NCBI GenBank assembly: GCA_010671865.1
Contig: GCA_010671865.1_4083.1
Source of the DNA: a phage
Direction: 5' to 3' (one strand)
DNA: 64,000 bases
Program-made: the position numbers and the translations under genes
Shown here: piece by piece, positions 27,064 to 51,022 of the stretch
How positions within the stretch are numbered: the first letter of the stretch is position 1
Layout of the letters: the number at the start of each line of letters is the position of its first letter
The notes under the pieces: generated by a model
What the model was told of the DNA's origin: nothing
Databases searched by the model: none
Seen by the model: only the letters and a program-made list of their open reading frames with translations

Positions 27064-27302
27064 GCATTTTTTCTTTTTCTTATATGTTTAGTTAAAAGGT
27101 ATATTAGTTTTCTGATGTATTCTTCTTGATAGTTTGTTCCTAAGAGTGCAAGAAGTTTTGCTTCAACTAAAGCTAGTTGTCGTTCTTCGAATGTGTGTTC
27201 CAGTATGTACTTGGGGTTTGATTTTTTAGCGTAAGCACTATTAGTCTTCATTACAATCTTATGATATTCATTAGCTGTTAGGATTTTTAAATACTTGATC
27301 AT
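27060..27302 (-). CDS. hypothetical small protein, family B
   Basis: 80-aa ORF; motif LGTNYQEEY. Confidence 0.6.
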   Translation of the reverse strand: MIKYLKILTANEYHKIVMKTNSAYAKKSNPKYILEHTFEERQLALVEAKLLALLGTNYQEEYIRKLIYLLTKHIRKRKNA

Positions 27303-27522
27303 GTATCTTTTCCTTTATAGAGAATTTAAGATATCGAAGCATACTTTCAATGTAATACTCTTGTCTGTCAGTGCCAAGAAAGTACATGAGTTGAATGTAT
27401 AAAACTTCTGCACTCCTTTCCGCTGGAGACTTGTTTGTGTCGTTTGGAAGTTGATTTGTATGTTTTCTTGATTTAATTAGTCGTTCTTTTAACTCATCGT
27501 CTGTTAAGTATTTCATTTTCAT
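27271..27522 (-). CDS. hypothetical small protein, family B
   Basis: 83-aa ORF; motif LGTDRQEYY; close paralog of 27494..27748. Confidence 0.6.
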   Translation of the reverse strand: MKMKYLTDDELKERLIKSRKHTNQLPNDTNKSPAERSAEVLYIQLMYFLGTDRQEYYIESMLRYLKFSIKEKIHDQVFKNPNS

Positions 27523-27748
27523 TTACTTTTTCCTTAATAGTGATTTTAAGATATCTAATCATACGTGCAACATATTCCTCTTGTCTATCAGTTCCCAGAA
27601 GATATGGTAGTGATTGGAATAATACTTCTGCACTCCTTTCTGCTGGGGTTTGGTTTAGGTCAATTGGACGTTTATTGGTATATCTCTTGGCACGAACTAA
27701 TCTCTCGACGTATTCATTATAGGTTAAGTATATCATTTCATTTTGCAT
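27494..27748 (-). CDS. hypothetical small protein, family B
   Basis: 84-aa ORF; motif LGTDRQEEY. Confidence 0.6.
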   Translation of the reverse strand: MQNEMIYLTYNEYVERLVRAKRYTNKRPIDLNQTPAERSAEVLFQSLPYLLGTDRQEEYVARMIRYLKITIKEKVNENEILNRR

Positions 27749-27968
27749 TTACTTTTTCCTTAATACTCATTATAAGATGTTCAATCATATTTTGAACCAT
27801 AAATTCTTGTTTATCAGTTCCAAGAACGTATGGTAGCTTCTGAAACAATACATTTGCAGATACTTCAGATATTGATTGATTTGGAACGAACTTAAGAGTA
27901 ATGTTTTTGGTTTTTAACATCTTCTCTTGAAATTCTTCATTCGTTAAGTATATCATTTCATTTTGCAT
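27738..27968 (-). CDS. hypothetical small protein, family B
   Basis: 76-aa ORF; motif LGTDKQEFM. Confidence 0.6.
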   Translation of the reverse strand: MQNEMIYLTNEEFQEKMLKTKNITLKFVPNQSISEVSANVLFQKLPYVLGTDKQEFMVQNMIEHLIMSIKEKVNAK

Positions 27969-28184
27969 TTACATTCTCTCATATATATTTTGGGTTAAAA
28001 GGTCAATCCAGATTTCCACATATCGTTGTTGGTGTTGCGTCCCTAACAGTACACCCAACTTAGCTTCACACTCTAATAACAATCTGGTTTTGTATGGTAG
28101 ACTTTGGAATCCTATAGTAGCATCTAATTTGGTAATTGCATAGTTGATTCGGATGAATCTTTCTTGCAATGTGATGTTGATCAT
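27969..28184 (-). CDS. hypothetical small protein, family B
   Basis: 71-aa ORF; motif LGTQHQQRY. Confidence 0.6.
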   Translation of the reverse strand: MINITLQERFIRINYAITKLDATIGFQSLPYKTRLLLECEAKLGVLLGTQHQQRYVEIWIDLLTQNIYERM

Positions 28185-28471
28185 TTCTTAGTACACCTCA
28201 GTGGTTGGGTCATTTGATGAAAGTACAGCTTACCTCTGATTTCCAGTAGTAACTCCGCGATTAAGCGATTTACTTCTGTATCTTGATAGTTTGTTCCTAA
28301 GAATACACCCATCTTTAACTCACGCATCATAATCATTTTCTTACTGTGTTGAATTTCTGGGTTGTGATAGATTGTATTACGTTTGTGCGTAATTTTTGTC
28401 ATACGCTCGGTATATTCATCTTTACTTAAATTGATCATTTGCATGTTCATCAACCTCACATTTATTTTCAA
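28181..28471 (-). CDS. hypothetical small protein, family B
   Basis: 96-aa ORF; motif LGTNYQDTE. Confidence 0.6.
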   Translation of the reverse strand: MKINVRLMNMQMINLSKDEYTERMTKITHKRNTIYHNPEIQHSKKMIMMRELKMGVFLGTNYQDTEVNRLIAELLLEIRGKLYFHQMTQPLRCTKK

Positions 28472-28473
28472 TA

Positions 28474-28740
28474 CTATTCTTTAGTTTGTAGATATAGTTT
28501 TCTTCCAATATATCTCTTAAGTGCGATTATGTATTCATCTACATAATACTCCTGATAGTTTGTTCCTATGAATGCACCCACCTTTAACTCAAGTTTCATA
28601 ATCATCTTATTTCCGTGTTTAATGACTTCTCCGTGATGGATTTCATTAAGTCCAGGTGCAATTTTTACCAGGCGTTCTTTATATTTTGCTTGAGATAATT
28701 TAATCATTTTCATGTTAATTACCCTTACATTTATTTTCAA
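28474..28740 (-). CDS. hypothetical small protein, family B
   Basis: 88-aa ORF; motif IGTNYQEYY. Confidence 0.6.
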   Translation of the reverse strand: MKINVRVINMKMIKLSQAKYKERLVKIAPGLNEIHHGEVIKHGNKMIMKLELKVGAFIGTNYQEYYVDEYIIALKRYIGRKLYLQTKE

Positions 28741-28945
28741 TACTATTCATGAGTTCTATAAGATAGTTTTCTACCTTACCTTCCTGATAGTTAGTCCCTA
28801 GGAAGTTGCACAACACGGCTTCTATGATTTTGATTTTCCTGATATCAGGCTTCAATCTTTTGTTATTGAATATTTGAATCCTTATATCTCTGGATGCATT
28901 TAAACGTTTTTGATATTCATGGTAAGTTAAATGAATCATTTTCAT
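28715..28945 (-). CDS. hypothetical small protein, family B
   Basis: 76-aa ORF; motif LGTNYQEGK. Confidence 0.6.
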   Translation of the reverse strand: MKMIHLTYHEYQKRLNASRDIRIQIFNNKRLKPDIRKIKIIEAVLCNFLGTNYQEGKVENYLIELMNSIENKCKGN

Positions 28946-29160
28946 TTACGTTTAACCTCTCGCTGGAGGGCATCAATTAACATCAGTACAGCATTCTCTT
29001 GATAGTTTGTTCCTAAGACTGAAAGCATCTTTATCTCATTTACTAAAATCAACTTCTTTGAGGGTTCAATAATGTGACTATCATAAACGGCCTTACGTGC
29101 TGGATAAGTTTTCGCCAGTATAACATAAAATTCGTCTTTACTTAAATTAATCATTTGCAT
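28942..29160 (-). CDS. hypothetical small protein, family B
   Basis: 72-aa ORF; motif LGTNYQENA. Confidence 0.6.
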   Translation of the reverse strand: MQMINLSKDEFYVILAKTYPARKAVYDSHIIEPSKKLILVNEIKMLSVLGTNYQENAVLMLIDALQREVKRK

Positions 29161-29369
29161 TTACTTTTAACCTCTTTCTGTAGAGCGTCAATCCATAGAT
29201 CTACATACATTTGTTGATAGTTTGTGCCTAAGAGTGCACCTACATAGAGTTCAGTTACTAGTGCGTGCTTAAGGTTAGCTTGGATGCTCTTATCGCTTGA
29301 TATCATTCTCCTTCTGCTTCCACATGTTTTCAGGAGTCTGATGTATTCAAAGCCTTGTAAATTTCTCAT
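29151..29369 (-). CDS. hypothetical small protein, family B
   Basis: 72-aa ORF; motif LGTNYQQMY. Confidence 0.6.
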   Translation of the reverse strand: MRNLQGFEYIRLLKTCGSRRRMISSDKSIQANLKHALVTELYVGALLGTNYQQMYVDLWIDALQKEVKSKCK

Positions 29370-29581
29370 ATTTTGGATACCACCTTGTTACGTAAGGAAC
29401 TTAATAATACGTCAGTGTAGATGTTTTGATAGTTTGTCCCTACGAAAGCACCCAACTTCATTTCAGCTATTATAACACATTTGTCCTCTTGTGCAATAGA
29501 TTTGTTTAACACAATACTATACACTTTTGATTTGATAGTTTGTAACCTCCAATGATACTGATACTCATTAAGGATTATCAT
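29366..29581 (-). CDS. hypothetical small protein, family B
   Basis: 71-aa ORF; motif VGTNYQNIY. Confidence 0.6.
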   Translation of the reverse strand: MIILNEYQYHWRLQTIKSKVYSIVLNKSIAQEDKCVIIAEMKLGAFVGTNYQNIYTDVLLSSLRNKVVSKI

Positions 29582-29828
29582 TCTCTTTCCTCCAGATTTC
29601 GGTTCTCATGTGTTGGCAGTGTGCATCAATATATTGCTCTATCGATCTGGCGATTGCTGTTTTATCAGTGCCTGTCATCAGTACAAGCATCTCGGCCTCA
29701 CAGTGAAGTAAACGCATGATATCATAGGGTAATATTTCAGATACCGTGTCATAGTGTTTCTGTGCCAGTGTCTGCAATAGTTTACAATACATTTTGTGAT
29801 TTAGTCTTTGTCGCATTGTTTCTTCCAT
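29568..29828 (-). CDS. hypothetical small protein, family B (divergent)
   Basis: 86-aa ORF; degenerate motif TGTDKTAIA. Confidence 0.5.
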   Translation of the reverse strand: MEETMRQRLNHKMYCKLLQTLAQKHYDTVSEILPYDIMRLLHCEAEMLVLMTGTDKTAIARSIEQYIDAHCQHMRTEIWRKENDNP

Positions 29829-30073
29829 TCTCTTCTGGCTTGGCGGGTTTTATCTGATATTTCGTTTCTCAATGCAGAGATATATCGTAGAGTGAACAGT
29901 TCTTGATAGTTAGTCCCTATGAATTTATTAAGATATACATCAGCGTTGACGATATCAGCTTCACGGGAATTATAAAGTTTATTGTTAGTGCGAAGGGTGT
30001 TTAGAAGAGAGAAGAGGGCAGTCTGATACTCAGTGCTTGATAAAGTTTTCATATTTTTCCACAATTCGTTCAT
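29801..30073 (-). CDS. hypothetical small protein, family B
   Basis: 90-aa ORF; motif IGTNYQELF. Confidence 0.6.
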   Translation of the reverse strand: MNELWKNMKTLSSTEYQTALFSLLNTLRTNNKLYNSREADIVNADVYLNKFIGTNYQELFTLRYISALRNEISDKTRQARREWKKQCDKD

Positions 30074-30287
30074 TTAGTTTTATCTGTATAAGATCCATTA
30101 GTTGTTCAAGATAATCGGTACAATATTTCTCTTGATATTGGGTTCCCACAAAGTACAGCAACCATAGCTCATGAACTTTAACTTTCATCTCGTTCCATGA
30201 AAGTGCATCGTCATCGTAGATTACTCTTGCTTCTGGGGTGAGCTTTCGAATTCTAAGTGAATATTCATCGTCCGTCAAGTGTTTCAT
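30030..30287 (-). CDS. hypothetical small protein, family B
   Basis: 85-aa ORF; motif VGTQYQEKY. Confidence 0.6.
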   Translation of the reverse strand: MKHLTDDEYSLRIRKLTPEARVIYDDDALSWNEMKVKVHELWLLYFVGTQYQEKYCTDYLEQLMDLIQIKLNERIVEKYENFIKH

Positions 30288-30442
30288 TTACATTTATCCC
30301 TTATTAGATTTGTGAGTGCAACTATGTGTTCATGGATATAAAAATTTTGATGAGAAGTTCCAAGAAAGTACAGCATCCATCCCTCACTCTGCTCGACTTC
30401 TAGTTTAGTATCGAGTTGGTCAGATATGTTAATGAAAACCAT
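30284..30442 (-). CDS. hypothetical small protein, family B (52 aa)
   Basis: hand-translated ...LGTSHQNFYIHEHIVALTNLIRDKCK; ATGA overlaps with both neighbours; below track cutoff; approximate. Confidence 0.45.
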   Translation of the reverse strand: MVFINISDQLDTKLEVEQSEGWMLYFLGTSHQNFYIHEHIVALTNLIRDKCK

Positions 30443-30699
30443 TAGTTCTTTTCCTTTCTTTCTATTTGTTTCATAAGAACATCGATATACTCACCCGCAA
30501 ACCTATTCTGATACTGCGTCCCCATGAATTCCAACATCCATACTTCAGCAACCTTTTCTTCAATTTCAGTCCATTGTAAGTACATCATAGTGAAGTAAAT
30601 GGTGTTCTCTTTTTTTCTGGCACTCTTAGCACGGGCCTCGTATTCAAAGTTATTAATGATGTTCATTACATTTGTCCATAATGTAATTCTTGAGTGCAA
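30442..30699 (-). CDS. hypothetical small protein, family B
   Basis: 85-aa ORF; motif MGTQYQNRF. Confidence 0.6.
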   Translation of the reverse strand: MHSRITLWTNVMNIINNFEYEARAKSARKKENTIYFTMMYLQWTEIEEKVAEVWMLEFMGTQYQNRFAGEYIDVLMKQIERKEKN

Positions 30700-30880
30700 C
30701 TATGTGTGCAATAACATACTCTTCCTGGAAGTTCGTCCCCAGTACAGCCAACATGCGTACATCGGTGGTGTTTATCTTGTGTTCCAATCGAGTTAAACCT
30801 TTTATTTGTAAAAGGGTATCGTATTTGTTTAATGCATCAATGATAATTCTCATCTTCTCAATATTACTTAAATGTTTCAT
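30653..30880 (-). CDS. hypothetical small protein, family B
   Basis: 75-aa ORF; motif LGTNFQEEY. Confidence 0.6.
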   Translation of the reverse strand: MKHLSNIEKMRIIIDALNKYDTLLQIKGLTRLEHKINTTDVRMLAVLGTNFQEEYVIAHIVALKNYIMDKCNEHH

Positions 30881-31089
30881 AGTTTACTCTTAATGTAGTT
30901 CTGAAGTTCAATTAAGTATTTCCCTACATAATACTCCTGAAAGTCTGTATCCAAAAATGCACCCATAAGTAAATCCTTCTCCATTGCCCTTGATAAGTTA
31001 AGGTCTGCATTTGAAAGGTATATAAGTAATATTTCAGTCTGGACAGAATTAAAACGTTTCTTATATTCTTCAGGTGTTAATATAATCAT
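30877..31089 (-). CDS. hypothetical small protein, family B
   Basis: 70-aa ORF; motif LDTDFQEYY. Confidence 0.6.
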   Translation of the reverse strand: MIILTPEEYKKRFNSVQTEILLIYLSNADLNLSRAMEKDLLMGAFLDTDFQEYYVGKYLIELQNYIKSKL

Positions 31090-31301
31090 AATTTGCTCCT
31101 GATGTATTTCTCAAGAGATGACAAATACTTTTCCTCATAATACTCCTGATAGTCTGTTCCCAAGAATGCACCCAAAAGTATTTCATTTTCCAATACCTCG
31201 GCTAAGTTTAAATCAGACGTCTCTTCGTATATTATGAGGATTTCAAGTTGTCTGGCAGCGATGCGTTCAGTATATTGATATGAGTTTTCTATAATAATCA
31301 T
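31086..31301 (-). CDS. hypothetical small protein, family B
   Basis: 71-aa ORF; motif LGTDYQEYY. Confidence 0.6.
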   Translation of the reverse strand: MIIIENSYQYTERIAARQLEILIIYEETSDLNLAEVLENEILLGAFLGTDYQEYYEEKYLSSLEKYIRSKL

Positions 31302-32839: not shown

Positions 32840-32912
32840 TAATTTAGGAGGGAGAACCATTTCCCCCTCTCTATGTAAAACATTATACTTGATTCTAAGT
32901 ACTATGCAAGTA
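32840..32912 (-). promoter_or_regulatory. promoter plus 5'-leader hairpin cassette
   Basis: minus strand: TTGCAT-16-TATAAT-GTTTTACAT then hairpin GAGGGGGAAATGGTTCTCCCTCC then AAGGAG RBS; approximate. Confidence 0.5.
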
Positions 32913-32916
32913 CTTT

Positions 32917-33249
32917 TTACATTTTAATACCTGGATTCAGGTAGCGGTGAGATCCATATTCTGGATCGGTTTCGGTCCAGTACTGTAAATCGATAGTACC
33001 TTTCGCGTTAATCTTGTCTACCAGCTTATTCATCTTAGTGTATACTACGTCAGCATCGATGCGTTTAAAGCCAGTAGCTTTAGTGAAGTAGTAGTGATTT
33101 GCTTCACTATCATTAAGGATATACCGAGCACCGTTTGCAGTCTGTGCGATAATGATTGAGTATTCTACTTCCCGATCCAGACCGTCGATGAATACAGATG
33201 AAACATTGGTACGGATGAAAGCTTTAACGATAGCGATTGAAGTACTCAT
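32917..33249 (-). CDS. hypothetical protein
   Basis: 110-aa ORF; AGGAG RBS. Confidence 0.55.
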   Translation of the reverse strand: MSTSIAIVKAFIRTNVSSVFIDGLDREVEYSIIIAQTANGARYILNDSEANHYYFTKATGFKRIDADVVYTKMNKLVDKINAKGTIDLQYWTETDPEYGSHRYLNPGIKM

Positions 33250-33332
33250 TTTGAATCTCCTAACTTTGTGGGCCGTCGCACCATTGCCGCCCTACGAGAT
33301 ACATTATTGCAGTACTGATATACTTTGTCAAT
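33250..33332 (-). promoter_or_regulatory. promoter plus leader hairpin cassette
   Basis: minus strand TTGACA-17-AATAAT then GC-rich hairpin before RBS of 32917..33249; approximate. Confidence 0.45.
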
Positions 33333-33453
33333 ACTTTTTTTATTAATAGTTTTCACCCCACCAGCAGATAGTTACTCACCGTTATTAACTATATATTTTA
33401 GATACACTCCTGCACCCAGTGGGCTAGTTTTTGTCTATGCGTATATAATAGCA

Positions 33454-33487
33454 AAGGGACTGACCGGAGTCAATCCCTTTTTTTATT
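33454..33487 (-). terminator. bidirectional intrinsic terminator (repeated element, copy 1)
   Basis: hairpin AAGGGACTGAC-CGGA-GTCAATCCCTT flanked by A-run and T-run; 17 nt downstream of stop of 33496..33696. Confidence 0.55.
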
Positions 33488-33495
33488 CTTTTTTG

Positions 33496-33696
33496 TTAGA
33501 TGATTCTCCAATCTTCTACGATCATGGTAAGATAACGGACCATCGATTCAAGTGATTCGAATTCCCGATAGTCTGCCGCTCCACCAGCGGTACAAGTACA
33601 GCCGATTAAACCATTTTGTAATTCCTTAATCTGTACATCGATAAGGTTGGCTTTAGCTTCTTTCAGTACTTCAACCAGGGCGAGAGCGATAGACAT
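33496..33696 (-). CDS. hypothetical protein
   Basis: 66-aa ORF; GGAG RBS; own promoter cassette. Confidence 0.55.
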   Translation of the reverse strand: MSIALALVEVLKEAKANLIDVQIKELQNGLIGCTCTAGGAADYREFESLESMVRYLTMIVEDWRII

Positions 33697-33699
33697 AAT

Positions 33700-33780
33700 G
33701 TTTTACTCCAAACTATTGGCGGGAGAACTATTCCCCCGCTCTATGTAAAACATTATACATTACTGGTTAGTACTGTCAAA
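33700..33780 (-). promoter_or_regulatory. promoter plus leader hairpin cassette
   Basis: minus strand TTGACA-16-TATAAT-GTTTTACAT, hairpin GAGCGGGGGAATAGTTCTCCCGCC; approximate. Confidence 0.5.
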
Positions 33781-33786
33781 TAGTTT

Positions 33787-34044
33787 TTATGAAATATCTT
33801 CGATGTAGTCGGCCCATTTCATTTTTTCAGTACTGTCAATGGCTACCGGATTATTTGGATCAAACCATTCACCATTACCGCAATACATACCAACGGCTAC
33901 GGTTTTATAGCCATCCTGGGCAGTACACCACGACATTGCACGATAGATATGGCCTTTAACTGGTTGCAGTACTGGTAACGTTTTATGGTCTTCTACGTAG
34001 GCCATAGCTTGAGGATTTACCCGATATTGTGTGAACTGTTCCAT
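33787..34044 (-). CDS. hypothetical protein
   Basis: 85-aa ORF; AAGGGG RBS. Confidence 0.55.
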   Translation of the reverse strand: MEQFTQYRVNPQAMAYVEDHKTLPVLQPVKGHIYRAMSWCTAQDGYKTVAVGMYCGNGEWFDPNNPVAIDSTEKMKWADYIEDIS

Positions 34045-34120
34045 TATGTTTCCCCTTGTAGTTAGTAAAGTTATTACATCAGTACTATCAAGCTATGTCA
34101 ATAGTACTGAAATAAAACTT

Positions 34121-34345
34121 TTAGATTAGATTATTGAGGCCGTCAATGGTAGACTCACTTTCTTCTTTCTCCCATTGTCGGTAGTACTTCCATGCTTCAT
34201 GATAGGTGGCGATTAGTTCATCTTTTTGATCCTGGTTACATGCCAGTACTGAATCACGGTGAGCGGTGTTATAGATAGAATCGAATGATTTCTTCTCTTC
34301 TGCCAGGTTAGCTACTTCCCGCATCAGTTCATCAAAGTTAGCCAT
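34121..34345 (-). CDS. hypothetical protein
   Basis: 74-aa ORF; AAGGAG RBS. Confidence 0.55.
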   Translation of the reverse strand: MANFDELMREVANLAEEKKSFDSIYNTAHRDSVLACNQDQKDELIATYHEAWKYYRQWEKEESESTIDGLNNLI

Positions 34346-34422
34346 TTTATTACTCCTTTTAGTGGGGGAGGATATATCCCCCTATGCAAAACATTATACT
34401 TTGTTTTAGTTATTATGCAAGT
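34346..34422 (-). promoter_or_regulatory. promoter plus leader hairpin cassette
   Basis: minus strand TTGCAT-16-TATAAT-GTTTTGCAT, hairpin GGGGGATATATCCTCCCCC; approximate. Confidence 0.5.
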
Positions 34423-34676
34423 ACTTTTTTCATATAAACATTATATTCTACACCGCCGTAACCTTCCACGATGATATGTTTTGCGTTATCACGTTTGCAC
34501 ATAGTGAAACCATCGTTTACGTGTTTTGCATTTTCCAGGGCGACATCACCGATAGCGGCACATACTGAACTAATAACGATATTCCGCAAAGTACTGGTAT
34601 CATTAGCGGTCATAGTAGTTTGCAGTACTACGTTGTCGTATACGTGTGCATTGATAGTGATTTCGATAGTGTTCAT
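34413..34676 (-). CDS. hypothetical protein
   Basis: track ORF 34413..34730 trimmed to MNTIEIT; the upstream MFYIERGKWFPL is a translation of the promoter/hairpin cassette. Confidence 0.55.
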   Translation of the reverse strand: MNTIEITINAHVYDNVVLQTTMTANDTSTLRNIVISSVCAAIGDVALENAKHVNDGFTMCKRDNAKHIIVEGYGGVEYNVYMKKVLA

Positions 34677-34758
34677 GGTGTATCTCCTGGACTTGAGGGG
34701 AAACCATTTCCCCCTCTCGATATAAAACATTATACGTTAATCTAACTACAATGCAAGT
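34677..34758 (-). promoter_or_regulatory. promoter plus leader hairpin cassette
   Basis: TTGCAT-16-TATAAT-GTTTTATATC, hairpin GGGGAAATGGTTTCCCC; approximate. Confidence 0.5.
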
Positions 34759-34763
34759 ACTTT

Positions 34764-34955
34764 TTAAATTTTATTTCCGATATAGTCCGGCCTATTCTTT
34801 TCGGTCATACGCTTTGCTAATGTTTGCATATAGCTTATCGCGTTTAAGGTGTCTTCCTCCAGGGATGAATCAACATAATCAGGATCATTCTTCACCTTGC
34901 AATGATTATGATAGCGTAGTACTGCCAGTACTTTTTTAACTTCTTCAACTGTCAT
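34764..34955 (-). CDS. hypothetical protein
   Basis: 63-aa ORF; ATGA overlap with upstream gene. Confidence 0.5.
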   Translation of the reverse strand: MTVEEVKKVLAVLRYHNHCKVKNDPDYVDSSLEEDTLNAISYMQTLAKRMTEKNRPDYIGNKI

Positions 34956-35224
34956 AATAAGTATTCCACTTCGTTAGCTTTCAGGTTAGTATCAATCATC
35001 AGTGGTTTTTTGTAGTCCACAAAACGATTAGTTTTCTCGATAGCGAAGCCCATATAATCCAGCTTGCTTACAGTACATTCATTCTTAAAAACTTCTTTCG
35101 CGGCATTGATGGCTGATTCAATTGATAACCGACCATCTAAGTTAATGTTACCAAATGATCCACCAGCAGAAGTAGGATTACCGTTCATATCTTTAATAAT
35201 CATAGTAGCGGAGTAGCTGGACAT
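34952..35224 (-). CDS. hypothetical protein
   Basis: 90-aa ORF; AAGGAAAC RBS. Confidence 0.55.
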   Translation of the reverse strand: MSSYSATMIIKDMNGNPTSAGGSFGNINLDGRLSIESAINAAKEVFKNECTVSKLDYMGFAIEKTNRFVDYKKPLMIDTNLKANEVEYLL

Positions 35225-35308
35225 AATTTTGTTTCCTTTTATTGGTGGGGAGAACTATTCTCCCCCTTGATGTAAACTATTATACAGTACTGATATACTT
35301 TGTCAATA
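35225..35308 (-). promoter_or_regulatory. promoter plus leader hairpin cassette
   Basis: TTGACA-16-TATAAT, hairpin GGGGGAGAATAGTTCTCCCCACC; approximate. Confidence 0.5.
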
Positions 35309-35309
35309 C

Positions 35310-35531
35310 TTAATTACGGATAAAGTGATAAAGACCATTATCATCATTAACGCCCCATACTGATTTACCATTTAAACCAGTGAAGCCGGATTGCAATTCA
35401 ATATGGAAACCGTTAGCATCAACGACGAAAACTTTTTTATTTTCATCCCGATAGCATTGATATTCTTCACCTGCTTTAAATGCTGCATCATTCAGAAGAT
35501 TTGAAGCGTGAACGCAGGTCATAGTAGCCAT
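35310..35531 (-). CDS. hypothetical protein
   Basis: track ORF 35310..35588 trimmed to MATMTCVHAS (AAGGAA RBS); upstream part is cassette read-through. Confidence 0.55.
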   Translation of the reverse strand: MATMTCVHASNLLNDAAFKAGEEYQCYRDENKKVFVVDANGFHIELQSGFTGLNGKSVWGVNDDNGLYHFIRN

Positions 35532-35616
35532 CGTCTTGATTCCTTTTAGTACCAGGGGGAACCATTTCCCCCTCTCGATATAAAACATTATACGCTCATT
35601 GAGATAGTTTGCAAGT
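35532..35616 (-). promoter_or_regulatory. promoter plus leader hairpin cassette
   Basis: TTGCAA-17-TATAAT-GTTTTATATC, hairpin GGGGGAAATGGTTCCCCC; approximate. Confidence 0.5.
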
Positions 35617-35717
35617 ACTTTTTATCAAATAGTTTTCAGTACTGAATACTTATATAATAGATACACTTCCGCACCCTATGGGTCAGTGAGTTATCTCTCA
35701 ATGAATATATAATAGCA

Positions 35718-35748
35718 AAGGGACTGACTGGAGTCAATCCCTTTTTTA
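35718..35748 (-). terminator. bidirectional intrinsic terminator (repeated element, copy 2)
   Basis: hairpin AAGGGACTGACTGGAGTCAATCCCTT plus T-run; just downstream of stop of 35756..36340. Confidence 0.55.
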
Positions 35749-35755
35749 ATCTTTT

Positions 35756-36340
35756 TTATCGTGTTATAGTTATCGCGTTAACATCACGTTTTTTATAGTA
35801 CTGATTCCAGATATTGCGGGTTAAACCGTAATCAAGTACTTTAATCAAGCCGTTGCGATCCTGGCCGATATTCTGTTTTCTGATATCTCTTATCGTTAGT
35901 GTGGATAATGTATCATCAACGTGATTGAGAGCATCAGCGAAATGGTGTTGGCGTTCTACCGTATTACGTTTAATATTGTACTTTAACTCATTGCACGCGT
36001 TTACATGCTTTACACTGCCTTTGCTTGCAGTACTCAAACGATCCATAACAATAAACAGATTATCAGGATCGCATAAATGCATATGCACCTTGGCAAAGAA
36101 CTGTTTAAGGTGCGGACGGTCATAATCTAAAAAATTCCATACCTTACATTCAGTTTCATTTTGTTCTACACCCGCATCACAATTCGCGACCTTAATCACT
36201 AACCGATCATTTAAAGCGAATACAATACGGGAAGAACCCGCACCGACGATCTCCAGTCCAGCTAACCGACAAGCTGAAAGGATCTCTTTGTTGGTTTCCA
36301 TTGCATGAAGTGAACGGATGAATTTAGTATAGTTACGCAT
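35756..36340 (-). CDS. putative protein kinase-like protein
   Basis: trimmed to MRNYTKF (AAGGAG RBS); motifs in canonical order: Gly-rich GAGSSRIVF, VIKV, catalytic-loop-like IRDIRKQN, DFG-like LDYG. Confidence 0.4.
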   Translation of the reverse strand: MRNYTKFIRSLHAMETNKEILSACRLAGLEIVGAGSSRIVFALNDRLVIKVANCDAGVEQNETECKVWNFLDYDRPHLKQFFAKVHMHLCDPDNLFIVMDRLSTASKGSVKHVNACNELKYNIKRNTVERQHHFADALNHVDDTLSTLTIRDIRKQNIGQDRNGLIKVLDYGLTRNIWNQYYKKRDVNAITITR

Positions 36341-36371
36341 TGTGTTGACTCCTTGAGTTAATGAAACTATA

Positions 36372-36614
36372 TTACAGTACTTTACTATCAATGGCAACTA
36401 CTTTTTTTACTTGAACTGCGTGGAATACTTCACGCGTATTTTTAGTACTGAATACTTTTGCCGTACCTTGTTCGACCGCAATACGATATCGACCGTTAAC
36501 GTCCACCATGTTGATAAAGTCCGGTGTACTGAATGGAGTTACCCGGCATTTAAGAACGGTTAACAGTTCCACCAGCGTTGTAGTCTCTTTGATACGTTTT
36601 TCTAAAGTAATCAT
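36372..36614 (-). CDS. hypothetical protein
   Basis: track ORF 36372..36671 trimmed to MITLEKR; upstream MTVLKCFSTMYAYQ is promoter read-through. Confidence 0.5.
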   Translation of the reverse strand: MITLEKRIKETTTLVELLTVLKCRVTPFSTPDFINMVDVNGRYRIAVEQGTAKVFSTKNTREVFHAVQVKKVVAIDSKVL

Positions 36615-36671
36615 TTTGTTTTCCCCGTGTTGGTATGCGTACATAGTACTAAAACATTTGAGTACTGTCAA

Positions 36672-36890
36672 TTAGATAATAGAATATTTCTTTAGTGATA
36701 ATGCGTCTTCTGTCGGTTGATATTCTACACCGTTCCCGTTATCAACCTTAGTGAGTAAACCTTTATCAATGAGTTTTTTGATGGTACGGTTTCCCTGTTG
36801 AAAACTGGTGAAGTGTGAATCATTACGAAAGGTATAACCGTGCTTCACTGCTTCATCAATAGTTTTCTTTTCGATTTTAGATAATTTCAT
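36672..36890 (-). CDS. hypothetical protein
   Basis: track ORF 36672..36950 trimmed to MKLSKIEK; same promoter type as 36372..36614. Confidence 0.5.
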   Translation of the reverse strand: MKLSKIEKKTIDEAVKHGYTFRNDSHFTSFQQGNRTIKKLIDKGLLTKVDNGNGVEYQPTEDALSLKKYSII

Positions 36891-36946
36891 TTTGTTTCTC
36901 TCTCTGTGTTGGTATAGATACATAATACTAAAACAATTGAGTACTG

Positions 36947-37201
36947 TCAACGTGATATTAGTTTTATTTTTTTATTGTATTGTTGGTGTTCATATAGATT
37001 AATTTTTCCAGTACTCTCAATTACTATTCTATTGTTAGTGTCTACATCGATAACACGTAGTTTCCCGTTGCTTAACTTCCTGGGTAATAGACTACCATTA
37101 ATAAACTCATTAGCAAGCTGTACGGCCTTTGTGATGATTCTCTGTGGTGCTTTATAGTGTACCCGCAAGATATTATCTTTAGATAGTTGTACCTTCATCA
37201 T
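36947..37201 (-). CDS. hypothetical protein
   Basis: 84-aa ORF. Confidence 0.5.
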   Translation of the reverse strand: MMKVQLSKDNILRVHYKAPQRIITKAVQLANEFINGSLLPRKLSNGKLRVIDVDTNNRIVIESTGKINLYEHQQYNKKIKLISR

Positions 37202-37214
37202 TTTAGTTTATCCT

Positions 37215-37243
37215 ATAAAAAAAGGCGGGAACTGAACCCGCCG
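37215..37243 (-). terminator. intrinsic terminator
   Basis: minus strand GGCGGGTTCAGTTCCCGCC hairpin followed by TTTTTTT; downstream of 37266..37661. Confidence 0.6.
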
Positions 37244-37265
37244 TGTTGTTAGTACTGCAAAGTTT

Positions 37266-37661
37266 TTAGATAACCTGGCGGCGTTTACTGTATACTGTTA
37301 CACGGTTTCCTTTACGGTCATGACGGATCTCTTTCTGGTTACGAATCAGTTCACTTGGACGCTTAAGGTTTGCCAGGTGATCCGCGTGAGTCCATGCATT
37401 TGCGTTAACTGTAACTTCAATATCAGAACCTTTCAAAAAGTCATCTTGAGCGTTCAGTACTTCAGCCAGTTCTTGAGCTTGCTTTAGTTCTGCTTCAGTA
37501 AGTACAGGCTCAGGTGAATTCACAATATCAGAGATCTCTTTGAACTGTACCGCCCAGCGTTGTCCTTTCGGTGCATCTTTGCCCATGTCTTTAAATGTTT
37601 CACCTTCTTCACGAGCAACGATGCGAGCTTGTTCACGGGTAGCGAAGAATTTAGTAATCAT
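37266..37661 (-). CDS. hypothetical protein (paralog of 49170..49436)
   Basis: track ORF trimmed to MITKFFATREQ; shares FATREQARI...FKDMG...DRKGNRVTVY with 49170..49436. Confidence 0.55.
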   Translation of the reverse strand: MITKFFATREQARIVAREEGETFKDMGKDAPKGQRWAVQFKEISDIVNSPEPVLTEAELKQAQELAEVLNAQDDFLKGSDIEVTVNANAWTHADHLANLKRPSELIRNQKEIRHDRKGNRVTVYSKRRQVI

Positions 37662-37760
37662 GGTGTACATCCTATTAGTTAAGTTAATTAGTACTACAAG
37701 TTAGAGTCTATTATAAAGTACTATCTGGGCAATGTCAAATAGTACTTTAAATGGATTCTA

Positions 37761-38084
37761 TTACATGTCTTTTTTACGTTTTACATCGTAGTAACGAACT
37801 GTAATTTCTTTGTTGATCTCATCCTCAATTCTGTGTAGTACTTTCTCTTTCGGGTTGAAACCTATTACAGTTTCTTTAATGATCTCCAAGCCCGTGTATT
37901 CGCCTTGTGTACCGTAACCGTAAGTAAAGGTTTCATGTCCCAGGTCTTCCCAGCGGTCACCAATCAATGCAGACACGTAGCATGAGTGGTAAGTATTGCC
38001 GTGGCTATCAGTCCACCGATTAACTTTAATGTCAAAGGAAGTTACAATTTTCATTTCTACTTTCTGGGCAAGGATCATAGTCAT
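37761..38084 (-). CDS. hypothetical protein (paralog of 43890..44213)
   Basis: 107-aa ORF; shares RWTDSHGNTYHSC...FTYGY...RKKD with 43890..44213. Confidence 0.6.
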   Translation of the reverse strand: MTMILAQKVEMKIVTSFDIKVNRWTDSHGNTYHSCYVSALIGDRWEDLGHETFTYGYGTQGEYTGLEIIKETVIGFNPKEKVLHRIEDEINKEITVRYYDVKRKKDM

Positions 38085-38170
38085 TTTAATTTCTCTCTTT
38101 TTGTTAGGAAGGGAACCATTCCCCTCACTTGATGTAAACTATTATACAGTACTAAGATACTTTGTCAATA
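38085..38170 (-). promoter_or_regulatory. promoter plus leader hairpin cassette
   Basis: TTGACA-16-TATAAT, hairpin GGGGAATGGTTCCC; approximate. Confidence 0.5.
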
Positions 38171-38171
38171 C

Positions 38172-38447
38172 TTAAGTATTGTAAATGTCGTGAATAGTGA
38201 TAAAGTTTTTACGACCGTAAACATGTAAATCAGTATCAATGTAGTGCTTATCAAGTACATCCTCGACGCTTAAAGCCGTGTCGTGAATATCTTCATAGAA
38301 TTGTGGATCTACAATCTTACTTAAATCATCCGGCGTTAACTTATCATTGAGCCATTGCACCGCCTGGATATCTGCATCACGTTTCCAGTCTTCCAGGTTA
38401 GTAGTCAGTACTTGCTCGATTTCGTTAGCTGTCAGTAGAATCCGCAT
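38172..38447 (-). CDS. hypothetical protein
   Basis: 91-aa ORF. Confidence 0.55.
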   Translation of the reverse strand: MRILLTANEIEQVLTTNLEDWKRDADIQAVQWLNDKLTPDDLSKIVDPQFYEDIHDTALSVEDVLDKHYIDTDLHVYGRKNFITIHDIYNT

Positions 38448-38528
38448 TTTAATTTCTCTCTTTGTTAGGTGGGGAACTATTCCCCACTTGATGTAAAATA
38501 TTATACAGTACTAAAAACTATTGTCAAA
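38448..38528 (-). promoter_or_regulatory. promoter plus leader hairpin cassette
   Basis: TTGACA-16-TATAAT, hairpin GTGGGGAATAGTTCCCCAC; approximate. Confidence 0.5.
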
Positions 38529-38536
38529 CTATTTTA

Positions 38537-38737
38537 TCAAATTGTTTCCCATTTCATGTTACCCGCTTTACGCTGTGAAACAGGAATAAACATGTTATTA
38601 ATGTTACTAATATAACCGACCTGTAAGTCACGCTGTGAACCATACGCCCGACTTGCTGCATTTTTAGCACCGCGTTCTGATTTATAAACGCCGCTGGATA
38701 CTGTAAAGCCTACTACACCGAAAGTAAAATGTTTCAT
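38537..38737 (-). CDS. hypothetical protein
   Basis: 66-aa ORF; long leader with tandem promoters. Confidence 0.5.
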   Translation of the reverse strand: MKHFTFGVVGFTVSSGVYKSERGAKNAASRAYGSQRDLQVGYISNINNMFIPVSQRKAGNMKWETI

Positions 38738-39020
38738 TTTGTATTCCTCTTTGTGGTTGATGTAAGTATTATACTCGTTTAATTTCTATTGTCAAACTAT
38801 TTTATCAGGGGAGGTTTTCGTATGTCTTACTCCTGGACTACTTAACGGGGTTACTTATTTCGTTCCCCGTCCTGATGTAAAACATTATACTTGATTCTAA
38901 GTACAATGCAAGTACTTTTTAAAAATAGTTTTCAGTACTTGATAGTACTAGCCACCAGCAAACAATAGATACATTTATGCACCCTGTGGGCTGATTTGTT
39001 TCTATGCGTATATAATAGCA

Positions 39021-39049
39021 AAGGGACTGACCGGAGTCAATCCCTTTTT
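39021..39049 (-). terminator. bidirectional intrinsic terminator (repeated element, copy 3)
   Basis: hairpin AAGGGACTGACCGGAGTCAATCCCTT plus T-run. Confidence 0.55.
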
Positions 39050-39058
39050 CAATTATTT

Positions 39059-39208
39059 TTAAACTTGTTTCGGGTTGCGATAGGTGATAGCGTTCGGGTA
39101 CATTTGTTTAATGTTATTCCATGCCTGGTTAACATTGTAACCACTTGAGCGAATCAGTTGGTTACTACCGACACCTTGAAACACTACTTCGAATAAGAAT
39201 TCTTTCAT
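39059..39208 (-). CDS. hypothetical small protein (49 aa)
   Basis: hand-translated MKEFLFEVVFQGVGSNQLIRSSGYNVNQAWNNIKQMYPNAITYRNPKQV; GAGGTG RBS; approximate. Confidence 0.4.
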   Translation of the reverse strand: MKEFLFEVVFQGVGSNQLIRSSGYNVNQAWNNIKQMYPNAITYRNPKQV

Positions 39209-39378
39209 GCTTTCACCTCGCTATCTGCTTTACCTTTACGCCAGGACATTACTAATTGTTCGCGTTGCCATAAGTCGAGTGATACAAAAAGTTTTGCGGT
39301 ATCACTTTTAGGATACTCGCCAGTAGTACCTAACCGATAAAACAGATCTTTCAGTACTGATAATTCTACTTGAATCAT
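39205..39378 (-). CDS. hypothetical small protein (57 aa)
   Basis: hand-translated MIQVELSVLKDLFYRLGTTGEYPKSDTAKLFVSLDLWQREQLVMSWRKGKADSEVKA; AGGAG RBS; ATGA overlap downstream; approximate. Confidence 0.4.
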   Translation of the reverse strand: MIQVELSVLKDLFYRLGTTGEYPKSDTAKLFVSLDLWQREQLVMSWRKGKADSEVKA

Positions 39379-39467
39379 TTTATTACTCCTGATTGCGTTA
39401 ATACTTCTACTATTGCATGAATGATCATAAGTACAGCTAAAACAATAATCATCGGATTCATTTGCAT
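39375..39467 (-). CDS. hypothetical small hydrophobic peptide (~30 aa)
   Basis: rough hand translation MQMNPMIIVLAVLMIIHAIVEVLTQSGVIK; AGGAG RBS; coordinates and sequence approximate. Confidence 0.3.
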   Translation of the reverse strand: MQMNPMIIVLAVLMIIHAIVEVLTQSGVIK

Positions 39468-39484
39468 AAGCTGTACTCCTTATA

Positions 39485-39697
39485 TTAATCTTTCAGCCAA
39501 TGATCCTGAATGAATTTTTCGCCGGAACCTTGCTGCATTGATTGTAACAGACGTTCACGATGAGCGGCGGCGAATTGCTCAGTACTATGCGTTACGCCAG
39601 GCTGATAACGTGATACCCCATCCGGTCCGATGTATTGTACATCCCACGGTTTTTCGTTAGTATCAGACCATTTACGAACGATTAGTTGACCTTGCAT
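39485..39697 (-). CDS. hypothetical protein
   Basis: 70-aa ORF; GAGGAAAG RBS. Confidence 0.55.
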   Translation of the reverse strand: MQGQLIVRKWSDTNEKPWDVQYIGPDGVSRYQPGVTHSTEQFAAAHRERLLQSMQQGSGEKFIQDHWLKD

Positions 39698-39775: not shown

Positions 39776-39780
39776 AGTTT

Positions 39781-42296: not shown

Positions 42297-42327
42297 AAAT
42301 GGCTGACCGGAGTCAACCACTTTTTTT
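42297..42327 (-). terminator. bidirectional intrinsic terminator (repeated element, copy 4, with compensatory stem changes)
   Basis: hairpin TGGCTGAC-CGGA-GTCAACCA plus T-run; stem differs from copies 1-3 by paired substitutions. Confidence 0.55.
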
Positions 42328-42464
42328 CATTTATTTTTAGCTTTTAGAATCGCCGCCTTTCGTGTCATTCCTTGTTTGATGTACTCCTTTACTTTCGCTT
42401 TACGTGCTTTCGCTTTATCTGCTTTCGTTTTAGGAGTACTGTAAATTATACCGTTAGGATTCAT
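42327..42464 (-). CDS. hypothetical small lysine-rich basic protein (45 aa)
   Basis: hand-translated codon by codon: MNPNGIIYSTPKTKADKAKARKAKVKEYIKQGMTRKAAILKAKNK; approximate coordinates. Confidence 0.4.
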   Translation of the reverse strand: MNPNGIIYSTPKTKADKAKARKAKVKEYIKQGMTRKAAILKAKNK

Positions 42465-46720: not shown

Positions 46721-46749
46721 TTGACAAGTGCATCCAGTACTGGCATAAT
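46721..46749 (+). promoter_or_regulatory. candidate plus-strand promoter (antisense or small-RNA transcript)
   Basis: TTGACA-17 nt-CATAAT on plus strand in a minus-strand gene region; a palindromic hairpin lies ~80 nt downstream. Confidence 0.4.
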
Positions 46750-46819
46750 TACTACATCAAGACGAAACAGTCACTAACCCACCGGGTGCCGAGATCCGTC
46801 TATTAAATGATTCAGTACT

Positions 46820-46848
46820 GAAAAAAGAAAGGGGATCAATTGATCCCC
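46820..46848. terminator. bidirectional terminator (perfect palindrome)
   Basis: GGGGATCAATTGATCCCC flanked by A-run and T-rich run; downstream of minus gene 46855..47076. Confidence 0.55.
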
Positions 46849-46854
46849 TCGTTG

Positions 46855-47076
46855 TTATTTTGTAAGGTATAAACAGAAGTCACCTTTATTTGCTACGCCG
46901 CCAGTGTAACGCGAGGAATAGTTAGAAACGTCCTGGACTTCTGCTATTACCAGGGTATCATCATTCAATTCGTCGCAGAAGCAAACGGCTGGATCTTGTA
47001 CGCCGATTTTGTCGGCATGTTCCCGCATAGATTTAACCAGTGCTTCCAGTTGGGAAAGAGTAGTGATATTAGCCAT
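46855..47076 (-). CDS. hypothetical protein
   Basis: track ORF trimmed to MANITTL (GAGGAAA RBS). Confidence 0.55.
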   Translation of the reverse strand: MANITTLSQLEALVKSMREHADKIGVQDPAVCFCDELNDDTLVIAEVQDVSNYSSRYTGGVANKGDFCLYLTK

Positions 47077-47160
47077 TTTATTTTCCTCATTACCAGGGAG
47101 AACCATTTCTCCCTTGATGTAAACTATTATACAGTACTGAAAACTAATTGCAAGTACTTT
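47077..47160 (-). promoter_or_regulatory. promoter plus leader hairpin cassette
   Basis: TTGCAA-16-TATAAT, hairpin GGGAGAAATGGTTCTCCC then TGGTAATGAGGAAA RBS; approximate. Confidence 0.5.
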
Positions 47161-48647: not shown

Positions 48648-48676
48648 ATTGACAGCATTATCAAGTACTGGCATAA
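48648..48676 (+). promoter_or_regulatory. candidate plus-strand promoter
   Basis: TTGACA-17 nt-CATAAT on plus strand; same AGTACTGGCATAAT core as 46721..46749. Confidence 0.4.
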
Positions 48677-48851
48677 TATACCCCATGACAACAGCTAACC
48701 CACCGGGTGCACAATTGTAACTATACTAAACTACTTTTTCTATAGATACACTCCCGCACCCTATGGGCTACGGCTTATCTGCCAATGAATACATTATGCC
48801 AGTACTGACAAAATAAGTCAATACCGGCAATTGTAAAGATTTGTAAACTGC

Positions 48852-50557: not shown

Positions 50558-50586
50558 ATTGACTCAGTACTAAAAAAGCGTATAAT
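50558..50586 (+). promoter_or_regulatory. candidate plus-strand promoter
   Basis: TTGACT-17 nt-TATAAT; downstream transcript start resembles that after 46721..46749 (TACTACAT-GACG-GA-AG...CCGAGATCCGTC). Confidence 0.4.
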
Positions 50587-51022
50587 TACTACATAGACGC
50601 GAGAAAGCGGATACCCCAGGGGGTGCCGAGATCCGTCCAAAATTCATAAAATTTAAAAAGAATACACTCCCGCACCCTAGCAGGTCAACGCACTTTCTCA
50701 GTACTGAATTATAGTACCATAGTACGGCCCAGGATAGCAAGCAAATTAATTAAAACTTTTTTCATCCAGGGTATTGCTTTATTTTTCCAGTACTGTATAA
50801 TAGTTCCATCAAGTCGAGAAAGACTCCAGCCCACCGGGTGCATAGTTACGCCCAAAATTCAGTACTGAAAAAATTTTTAAAAATATCCGTCCAGGCCGTT
50901 GACATTGCCCCCAGTTTATAAGATAATGATTCCAGATTCAGAAAAATCTAACTCCAGATACTGCGGGGAAACTATCCCCACGCGGTAGGGGAACTATTGG
51001 AAAAAACAAAATAAAATTTTGA

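Follow-up and report, generated by a model that had tools for sequence, protein, structure and literature searches.

Putative minus-strand cassettes of terminator hairpin, overlapping extended -10 promoter and conserved leader, repeated in the early region of a jumbo coliphage

In T4-type phages, a terminator stem-loop is joined to an AT-rich tract and a strong sigma-70-like promoter in repeated intergenic cassettes known as promoter-early stem-loops (PeSLs) (Arbiol et al. 2010, PMC2839356; Comeau et al. 2014, PMC4122927). These cassettes cluster in hyperplastic regions and have been implicated in the shuffling of ORFans (PMC2839356, PMC4122927). In the jumbo phage PA5oct, abundant non-coding RNAs of 236-451 nt, defined by RNA sequencing (RNA-seq), came from the terminal-repeat region (Lood et al. 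2020, PMC7318152). Here, a repeated element of about 100 bp was analysed in a 64,000-nt stretch of phage DNA (contig GCA_010671865.1_4083.1 of assembly GCA_010671865.1, hereafter "the window"), where copies 1 to 4 lie on the minus strand at 33391-33487, 35650-35748, 38957-39049 and 42229-42327. The initial annotation had read it as an inter-module element ending in a bidirectional terminator. From its anatomy, it is probably a minus-strand cassette in which a terminator, an extended -10 promoter and a conserved leader are combined.

All four full copies were recovered where they had been proposed, with pairwise identities of 76-86%, and lay 8-16 nt after the stops of minus-strand open reading frames (ORFs 33496..33696, 35756..36397, 39059..39208 and 42327..42464), as had also been noticed. 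The orthologues of all four are intergenic in the independent annotation of the related phage CRJP21. The partial copy proposed at 48733-48800 was a true family member (cmsearch E = 8e-10; copy 5 below); at 50655-50700 a repeat remnant was present, but it was degenerate, had no covariance-model match and faced a good plus-strand copy at 50585-50647. The core box ATACAYTNNNGCACCCNNNGGG matched 8 times in the window (0.01 expected), and the covariance model found 9 promoter-leader copies on both strands, four of them overlooked originally and in the opposite orientation (46721-46810, 48649-48731, 50559-50647 and 50774-50862, plus strand). Small ORFs crossing the element were considered and discarded: only spurious TTG-started frames were present, with stops inside the conserved box on both strands.

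The initial annotation had also overlooked a near-consensus extended -10 promoter, its TTGAC placed inside the stem and its TATTAT within the tail. At all four copies, a consensus scan found TTGACT-17-TATTAT extended by TG, and a promoter was also scored at copy 5. The -35 sequence TTGAC(T) accounts for the inner half of the hairpin's 5' arm, and TGcTATTAT follows 17 bp downstream in its U-rich tail. Relatives were recovered with an nhmmer profile and then with the covariance model, giving 108 copies (E <= 1e-3) from 22 sources. Among 91 distinct family copies, TTGAC was conserved at 99-100%, the spacer was 17 bp in 74, TGn preceded the -10 in 65, CA was found at the predicted start in 84%, and the 20 nt upstream of the -35 were 78% A+T. 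The A-tract upstream of the -35 (70-84% A) was a feature of all 91 copies, including the 53 without a hairpin; a 9-14 bp hairpin around the -35 was present in the other 38. In the window, hairpins were found in the five minus-strand copies and in none of the 4 plus-strand copies, and only where an ORF on the same strand ends just upstream. Since more than half of the copies have no hairpin, yet keep TTGAC, the spacer, TGn, the A-tract and CA, the constant part of the family appears to be the promoter, and the hairpin an addition employed where the end of a gene lies just upstream. The T-run, which had been taken for a plus-strand terminator tail, is better read as the A-tract of the promoter (an UP-like element), because it is equally present in copies lacking the hairpin.

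The stem substitutions reported earlier were confirmed, with GGGACTGAC/GTCAATCCC in copies 1-3 and TGGCTGAC/GTCAACCA in copy 4: two changes are fully compensatory (A-T to G-C and G-C to T-A), and a third pairs only on the minus strand, as G.U. Covariation was also seen in relatives, with 21 distinct 5' arms among 38 hairpins and outer-stem variants including GGGA/UCCC, GUGG/CCAU, GGGG/CCCY, GUAC/GUAC, GAGG/CCUU and others. Twenty-six of the 38 loops were UUCG, UCCG or UACG closed by C-G, that is, UNCG tetraloops on the sense strand only, and 72 of the 447 pairs were G.U on the sense strand and hence A.C mismatches on the plus strand. In every window copy a plus-strand C.A mismatch corresponds to a U.G wobble on the minus strand, and folding energies ranged from -16.9 to -19.5 kcal/mol on the minus strand vs. 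-6.4 to -13.2 kcal/mol on the plus strand, a difference of 4-10 kcal/mol. The hairpin would work on the minus strand because of these G.U pairs, the UNCG loops and the lower folding energy there. The earlier proposal of a functional RNA helix was right in so far as an RNA structure seems to be selected at the terminator position, but on the minus (gene-sense) strand and not on both; a bidirectional terminator was not supported, the stem being tuned to one strand. On the sense strand, the 12-pair stem is followed by a U-rich but interrupted tail (UUUGCUAUUAU), with U-rich tails UUUGCUAUU at ~33444-33452 in copy 1 and likewise in the paralogues; on the antisense strand there is a U5-7 run but a mismatched stem. 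This anatomy suggests that the hairpin terminates or attenuates the transcript of the upstream small gene.

The remaining ~55 nt of the element, previously described as ATAGATACAC...GCACCC...GGG, are best read, when reverse-complemented, as the conserved transcribed leader of this promoter. After the predicted start the leader reads CAU(U/A)G... CCC-NNN-GGGUGC-N6-GUAUCUAU, and over ~50 nt it contains, in this order, a variable-stem hairpin with an RNGAWAA loop (hairpin 1), YUAR, a mini-hairpin with its adjoining GC (R-CCC-NNN-GGGU-GC), and GYRUCY. Leader statistics were taken from a covariance-model alignment of the 108 copies (99 distinct). The mini-hairpin R-CCC-NNN-GGG-U was 97% paired; its closing pair alternates between G.U (47 copies) and A-U (42 copies), and for this reason it pairs on the sense strand only, and its inner pairs were almost invariant, with two C-G to U-A double changes. 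Hairpin 1 lies 4 nt upstream (3-5 bp stem; loops of 6-8 nt: GAGAAA, GCGAAA, AGAUAA, AGAACAA) and was recognised in 78 of the 102 copies, among which 30 different stems occurred. When its 5' arm was exchanged between copies, only 35.5 +/- 3.6 copies kept hairpin 1 (maximum 43 in 300 trials), which makes the real count the strongest covariation signal. This position-restricted test with its arm-swap control replaced a generic count of the best hairpin upstream of the box, uninformative because AT-rich sequence pairs easily. GYRUCY, 6 nt after GGGUGC, varied only by transitions that keep pairing with GGGUGC; this alternative helix was 90.7% pairable, mostly as G.U, vs. 33-66% when the partner columns were slid. 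Since the GGGUGC/GYRUCY helix excludes the mini-hairpin, the leader could toggle between two folds, although this is suggestive only. In the aligned copies, covariation together with wobble asymmetry shows structure of the leader at the RNA level. A closing stem or pseudoknot between AGAUA (in the hairpin 1 loop or at the 5' end) and UAUCU was seen by eye in some subgroups and was rejected, there being no consistent covariation with the GAGAAA/GCGAAA loops.

Searches of the whole window against Rfam 15 gave 0 matches at the gathering threshold (two copies gave terminator-driven hits far below it) and the window held no tRNA or tmRNA; host mimicry was not indicated, with no blastn match in 5,426 E. 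coli genomes. No paper describing the leader was found in the literature, nor any transcript map for Rak2-like phages. We tentatively raise the possibility, though we hold it to be doubtful, that the leader is an undescribed structured RNA motif which acts as a regulatory signal and sets apart, across the Rak2-like jumbo phages, a special class of early promoters with an extended -10. If this were true, the leader, recognised by a protein or acting by itself, would for example alter the fate of polymerase or transcript (antitermination, processing or a stability switch); free-standing copies would then count as small RNAs, and long double-stranded RNA hairpins would form from the face-to-face pairs.

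Several observations weigh against the reading as terminator, promoter and structured leader. Of the 102 copies, 24 lack hairpin 1, window copies 1 and 3 among them; all 24 are 5 nt shorter there and have an A-rich stretch only. The near-invariant stem of the mini-hairpin provides little true covariation (the 2 double changes), the alternative helix varies on one side only and by transitions, and the alignment was fitted to our own structure, so that pair counts are biased towards it. The leader was thermodynamically unremarkable (mean minimum free energy z-score -0.97 sense vs. -0.58 antisense), and RNAalifold kept only the 4-bp mini-hairpin, at -3.8 kcal/mol. The box sequence CCCNNNGGG is a palindrome in DNA too, so protein-DNA binding is conceivable. 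The sense U-tract UUUGCUAUUAU is short and interrupted, and termination may therefore be partial. Promoter activity, start sites and termination are all predicted from sequence.

Four other explanations were weighed against the minus-strand cassette. An intrinsic terminator working on both strands, with the remainder as an unspecified conserved spacer, would account for the A's on one side of the hairpin and the 5-7 T's on the other, for a plus-strand fold still reaching -13.2 kcal/mol in copies 1-3 before the U5-7 run, and for the presence of plus-strand promoters of the same family in the window. It is nevertheless unlikely: the plus-strand stem has its C.A mismatch in every window copy and only -6.4 kcal/mol in copy 4, 16% of the family pairs are mismatches on that strand, the A-tract is equally present in hairpinless copies and hence belongs to the promoter, the known plus-strand promoters (scan from 32500 onward) lie to the right of the sites and point away, and the invariant TTGAC-17-TATTAT and the conserved leader are left unexplained. 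Alternatively, the plus strand could carry a small RNA gene (~85 nt) lying antisense to the early genes, which would start after a TATAAT 5' of ATAGATACAC and end at the hairpin and T-run, and indeed TATAAT is found 2 nt before AGATACAC in copies 2 and 4 and a perfect U-run follows the plus-strand hairpin; this -10 is however missing from copy 3, not conserved in relatives and has no -35, G.U pairs in all three helices turn into A.C on the plus strand, only the minus strand makes sense of the UNCG loops and of the invariant TTGAC, and many relatives have no hairpin at all at the "terminator" end. This small RNA was rejected as highly improbable for its wobble asymmetry, UNCG loops and non-conserved -10.

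The box might instead be a DNA operator: promoters of this class would be repressed or blocked by a protein, of the phage or of the host, bound to the palindromic CCCNNNGGG(TGC) at ~+22 to +34, and RNA pairing would be incidental. The nearly invariant core is a perfect DNA palindrome, as typical of protein sites, both double changes (CCT...AGG) retain it, and face-to-face pairs set two boxes at discrete distances of 50, 61 or 68 bp; but the palindrome spacer is 3 or 4 nt and the distance to the -10 is bimodal (21 vs. 26-27 nt), variation that counts against an operator because a DNA site tolerates it poorly and an RNA hairpin is unharmed by it. In addition, the flanking pair alternates between G.U and A-U, GYRUCY varies while keeping wobble pairing, and the neighbouring hairpin 1 covaries strongly, so that an operator is improbable as the explanation of the box. 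Even less probable is a selfish or recombinogenic repeat (like a miniature inverted-repeat transposable element or a PeSL-like linker) conserved through spread and gene conversion and not through leader function. The many copies per genome in a hyperplastic region, the frequent inverted pairs (31 of 102 copies) and a 320-bp insertion in CRJP21/121Q that carries a copy with TTAAAATAA repeats on both sides would fit such a repeat. Its orientation is however tied to gene direction and stop codons, terminal inverted repeats are missing from solo copies, loops and box stay fixed although the stems covary, the motifs are kept at 73-81% identity across genera whose copies cannot homogenise together, and most indel breakpoints use another promoter family.

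The minus-strand cassette, which remains the preferred reading, would work in three steps. A GC-rich UNCG hairpin with the U-rich tail UUUGCUAUUAU, placed after the stop of the upstream small gene, would terminate or attenuate its transcript. A host sigma-70 promoter would be contained in the same bases, with the -35 in the 5' arm, a 17-bp spacer, the extended -10 in the tail and the A-tract as an UP-like element, and transcription would restart ~7 nt after the -10, at the A of the conserved CAT indicated by the consensus. The new transcript would then open with the conserved ~50-nt leader (optional hairpin 1, YUAR, mini-hairpin, GC, GYRUCY) and, in the window, cross a second early promoter into the next small gene. 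The leader may be a cis-acting RNA signal marking one class of early transcripts, with possible roles in protein recognition, processing, stability or as a folding switch. Because it is repeated, the cassette may also provide a homology patch for shuffling, as proposed for the T4-type PeSLs.

Copy 1 (minus strand; cmsearch 33391-33452, E = 3.7e-11) is a whole cassette of the short-leader variant. Its putative terminator hairpin AAAGGGAUUGAC-UCCG-GUCAGUCCCUUU (33453..33480, 12 pairs, -19.5 kcal/mol on the minus and -13.2 on the plus strand) lies 16 nt past the stop of ORF 33496..33696; the predicted promoter (33445..33473) has its -35 TTGACT at 33468-33473, a 17-bp spacer, TGc and the -10 TATTAT at 33445-33450, with the start predicted at ~33438 (the A of CATAG), and the leader (33400..33438) contains the A-rich AUAGACAAAAACUAG without hairpin 1, the box CCCACUGGGUGC (33412-33423) and GUAUCU (33400-33405). 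Copy 2 (minus strand, E = 1.8e-11) has the hairpin at 35717-35744, the -35 at 35732-35737, the -10 at 35709-35714, the start at ~35702, hairpin 1 (UGAG-AGAUAA-CUCA) at 35687-35700, the box at 35671-35682 and GUAUCU at 35659-35664. The corresponding features of copy 3 (minus strand), also a short-leader variant, lie at 39020-39047 (hairpin), 39035-39040 (-35), 39012-39017 (-10), ~39005 (start) and 38979-38990 (box), and those of copy 4 (minus strand) at 42296-42323 (hairpin with the covarying stem GUGGUUGAC/GUCAGCCAU), 42311-42316 (-35), 42288-42293 (-10), ~42281 (start), 42266-42279 (hairpin 1) and 42250-42261 (box). A second early promoter, here called class I (TTGCAA-16-TATAAT, 35587..35614, minus strand), is predicted between the leader of copy 2 and the downstream gene; equivalents were found at 33303-33331 and 42167-42194, and a further promoter-like repeat at 38873-38929.

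Copy 5 (48735..48821, minus strand) has its promoter TTGACT-17-TGgCATAAT (48793-48821) within a hairpin of 13 bp and a 7-nt loop, with a predicted start near 48786, followed by hairpin 1 (UGGC-AGAUAA-GCCG, 48771-48784) and the box (48756-48767), and is the minus member of a face-to-face pair. Its convergent partner on the plus strand (48649..48731) is the promoter-leader TTGACA-17-CATAAT with the start predicted near 48684 and the box at 48699-48710. The other plus-strand copies are 50559..50647 (TTGACT-16-TATAAT, predicted start near 50593, hairpin 1 CGC-GAGAAA-GCG, box 50614-50626), which faces the minus-strand remnant 50655-50700, and 50774..50862 (TTGCTT-16-TATAAT, predicted start near 50808, hairpin 1 GUC-GAGAAA-GAC at 50813-50824, box 50830-50841). 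The fourth is part of a unit at 46721..46860 (plus strand) that appears to be free-standing: promoter 46721-46749, start ~46756, hairpin 1 GAC-GAAACA-GUC, box 46778-46789, and a terminator at 46830-46849 with a U-rich tail. The predicted RNA is ~105 nt long, would end near 46855-46862 and is convergent with minus-strand ORF 46855..47106, and the terminator (46829-46850) is good on both strands.

The contexts of 102 distinct copies were classified by the first recognisable feature downstream. This was an inverted copy of the element (face-to-face pair) in 31, another sigma-70 promoter in 19 (window copies 1 and 4 were scored here, and copies 2 and 3 are alike by reading), a terminator in 12 and a Shine-Dalgarno sequence with a start codon in 11; nothing was recognised in 29. 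An own promoter and own terminator around a short non-coding RNA are thus present, by anatomy, at 46721-46860 (plus strand) and in the 12 terminator-ended copies; window copies 1-4 have no terminator after the leader, as a free-standing small RNA gene would. Face-to-face pairs in the window (48649-48821 and 50559-50700) have their predicted starts ~100 bp apart; the read-through RNA of the former forms a long hairpin (-23 to -31 kcal/mol, z ~ -6). Across the family, the spacing of such pairs takes discrete values (50, 61 or 68 nt), and RNA reading through a pair folds into a long hairpin (mean z of -6.3, down to -41 kcal/mol), with predicted stems of 16-30 bp. Because of the face-to-face pairs and the terminator-ended unit, the promoter-leader unit appears to be used as more than a simple 5' untranslated region (5' UTR). 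In Munch-like relatives, a Fur-box-like near-perfect palindrome (AATGATAATCATT / AAATGATTATCATTATC) was observed in the spacer of face-to-face pairs (L003 ~8040-8065, L014 ~3120-3145, L018 ~12050-12075 and 18455-18480); no Fur box adjoined the elements of the window. In the Salmonella phage Munch (L018 3594-4176), the annotated gene CPT_Munch_039 (HNH endonuclease) is driven directly by one copy, whose leader serves as the 5' UTR of the gene.

The 113-nt element showed at least 99% identity in 16 records, in which the surrounding 4 kb were mostly 80-95% identical, and was recognisable at 73-81% identity in CBB, GAP32, RaK2, K64-1, Munch, Serratia BF and the Erwinia and Yersinia jumbo phages. 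The family recovered by the covariance model included CBB, GAP32, RaK2, K64-1, Munch, Serratia BF, Yersinia fHe-Yen9-04 and metagenomic contigs. In a pattern scan of metagenomes, ~7 loci carried true copies (L027, L038, L057, L095, L103, L134 and L135) among 120 reported stretches, the rest being chance matches. The hairpin is annotated merely as an ARNold stem-loop in the GAP32 record, and the authors of CBB listed only RpoD-like promoters with UP elements.

The 4-kb stretch around the element was 92-94% identical to Asteriusvirus (121Q/PBECO4-like) jumbo coliphages (phAPEC6, CRJP21, PBECO4 and others), and copy 2 was 100% identical to phage 121Q; on these matches, the window is assigned to an Asteriusvirus (Rak2-like) jumbo coliphage. 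ORFs at ~32-52 kb are small and on the minus strand, the GC skew is negative to ~52 kb and the genes left of the element sites are on the minus strand too. The promoter scan, which covered the window from position 32500 onward, found dozens of near-consensus sigma-70 promoters on the minus strand of the region. The flanking proteins were all ORFans, except for a sub-threshold kinase-like match of 35756..36397. The homologous region of phage CBB, where the element occurs 7 times, is part of an annotated 22.5-kb terminal repeat, and Asteriusvirus records of 366-384 kb had 10 copies vs. 5 in the 348-kb records; for these two reasons, the early region with the window copies is probably in the terminal repeat of the phage.

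The proposed role as an inter-module marker was examined by comparison with CRJP21, from which the window differs by ~10 insertions, deletions or replacements in 15 kb. The element appears to take part in the shuffling of cassettes, but most indel breakpoints fall in another, commoner early-promoter repeat (TTGCAA/TTGACA-16-TATAAT followed by a GGGG...CCCC hairpin), and the element appears to be no special boundary marker. The 320-bp insertion of CRJP21 and 121Q, missing from the window at 40659-40670 (vs. L139 17049-17370), comprises a promoter-leader copy, a second promoter and ~200 nt without an obvious ORF, with TTAAAATAA repeats at both ends; at this locus the window differs from 121Q (L010), though copy 2 is identical. 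The commoner repeat is itself a second cassette, with at least 18 copies at 32846-51535 (minus strand; families D1-D3, D5 and D7), laid out as an A/T-rich tract, TTGCAA/TTGACA, 16 bp, TATAAT, a GGGG-loop-CCCC hairpin at ~+8 to +30 and a ribosome-binding site.

Other repeats were also observed in the window. The palindromic octamer CAGTACTG occurred 55 times (0.75 expected; e.g. 33310, 35637, 46735, 46813, 48624, 48800, 50699, 50788 and 50860), some of them in promoter spacers immediately ahead of the -10, some in upstream A/T tracts and others elsewhere, the 1-16 kb part included. It is probably a protein-binding or modification site, and no description of it was found in the literature. A ~95-nt conserved transcribed spacer between tandem promoters, with two copies ~87% identical (38768-38870 and 48457-48561, minus strand, family D10) and potential pairings CGGGGAAC...CCCCG and CAGGAG...CUCCCCUG, may be another structured leader. 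Identical terminator hairpins AGCCCACCTTAAACAGTGGGCT with T-runs were found 735 bp apart (45217-45238 and 45952-45973, minus strand), the second adjoining a CRJP21 insertion. On the plus strand, 56593-64000 is a tandem array with a period of ~1.2 kb (families D8, D11, D12 and D15), in each unit of which a GCCAGTACnnnnGTACTGGC hairpin is accompanied by a TATAAT-type promoter, a ribosome-binding site and an ORF that starts with MLPFARMVKYGNI. Diverged direct-repeat arrays at 12242-14270 and 26053-31192 (minus strand; periods ~450 bp and ~215-270 bp; D4, D6, D13, D14, D17, D18 and D20) are most likely tandem paralogous small genes.

Early regions of jumbo phages consist almost entirely of unannotated ORFans, and the present reading turns an anonymous repeat into a testable regulatory grammar, in which starts, stops and two classes of promoter are predicted over ~20 kb of early genes. 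The leader (more than 100 copies, at least 8 host genera, covarying stems, no Rfam match) is a candidate new phage regulatory RNA, and the covariance model can be used to annotate it in other genomes.

Among known systems, lambdoid phages carry promoter-proximal signals such as nut boxA/boxB, the HK022 put sites and the short PR' 6S transcript ending at tR'. The leader resembles these in that a short hairpin, its loop rich in purines, and a conserved sequence stand at the start of early transcripts in a terminator-crowded region, and some promoter-leader-terminator copies resemble PR'-6S-tR'. The boxB stem is however 5 bp with a GNRA-like pentaloop, vs. 3-5 bp and loops of 6-8 nt in hairpin 1; nut boxA (YGCTCTTTAAC, up to 2 mismatches) matched 27 times vs. 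30.9 expected, with no match in any leader; and here neither an antiterminator protein nor an Rfam match was identified. The resemblance to nut/put signals is a lead only. PA5oct has also been placed in the Rak2-like clade, and the non-coding transcripts from its terminal repeat are 236-451 nt long and were defined by RNA-seq. The element resembles intrinsic (rho-independent) terminators, bidirectional ones included, in the GC-rich stem, the stable tetraloop right after a stop, the U-rich tail and the A-tract opposite; it differs in the interrupted sense U-tract, in the mismatched antisense stem and in flanks that double as -10 region and UP-like element.

By analogy of layout, the closest described kind appears to be the T4-type PeSL. 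There are differences: the stem-loop here overlaps the promoter, with the -35 in its 5' arm and the -10 in its U-tail, whereas the PeSL stem-loop, which acts as terminator for the preceding gene, lies just upstream; the promoter here has an extended -10; some copies of the promoter-leader core have no stem-loop at all; and the phage is an Asteriusvirus (Rak2-like) and not one of the Tevenvirinae. A PeSL has a Shine-Dalgarno sequence and a start codon at its 3' end, whereas here the cassette continues into a conserved leader of ~50 nt and, within the window, a second promoter comes next, the Shine-Dalgarno arrangement being found in 11 of the 102 family copies only. Both are nevertheless small repeated intergenic cassettes of a hyperplastic early region rich in small ORFans, and in both a strong sigma-70-like promoter with a 17-bp spacer is preceded by an AT-rich tract; the hairpin here, a putative terminator, resembles the terminator-type stem-loop of PeSLs (often A3-4G3-loop-C3T3-4). 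PeSL copies bound insertions and deletions between close relatives, and mini-circles arise when PeSL copies recombine; the present element also lies near such indels, one insertion carrying a copy, but most breakpoints are in the other promoter repeat. The terminator/promoter cassette logic of T4-type phages would thus be present in a distant jumbo lineage, in a more compact, overlapping form.

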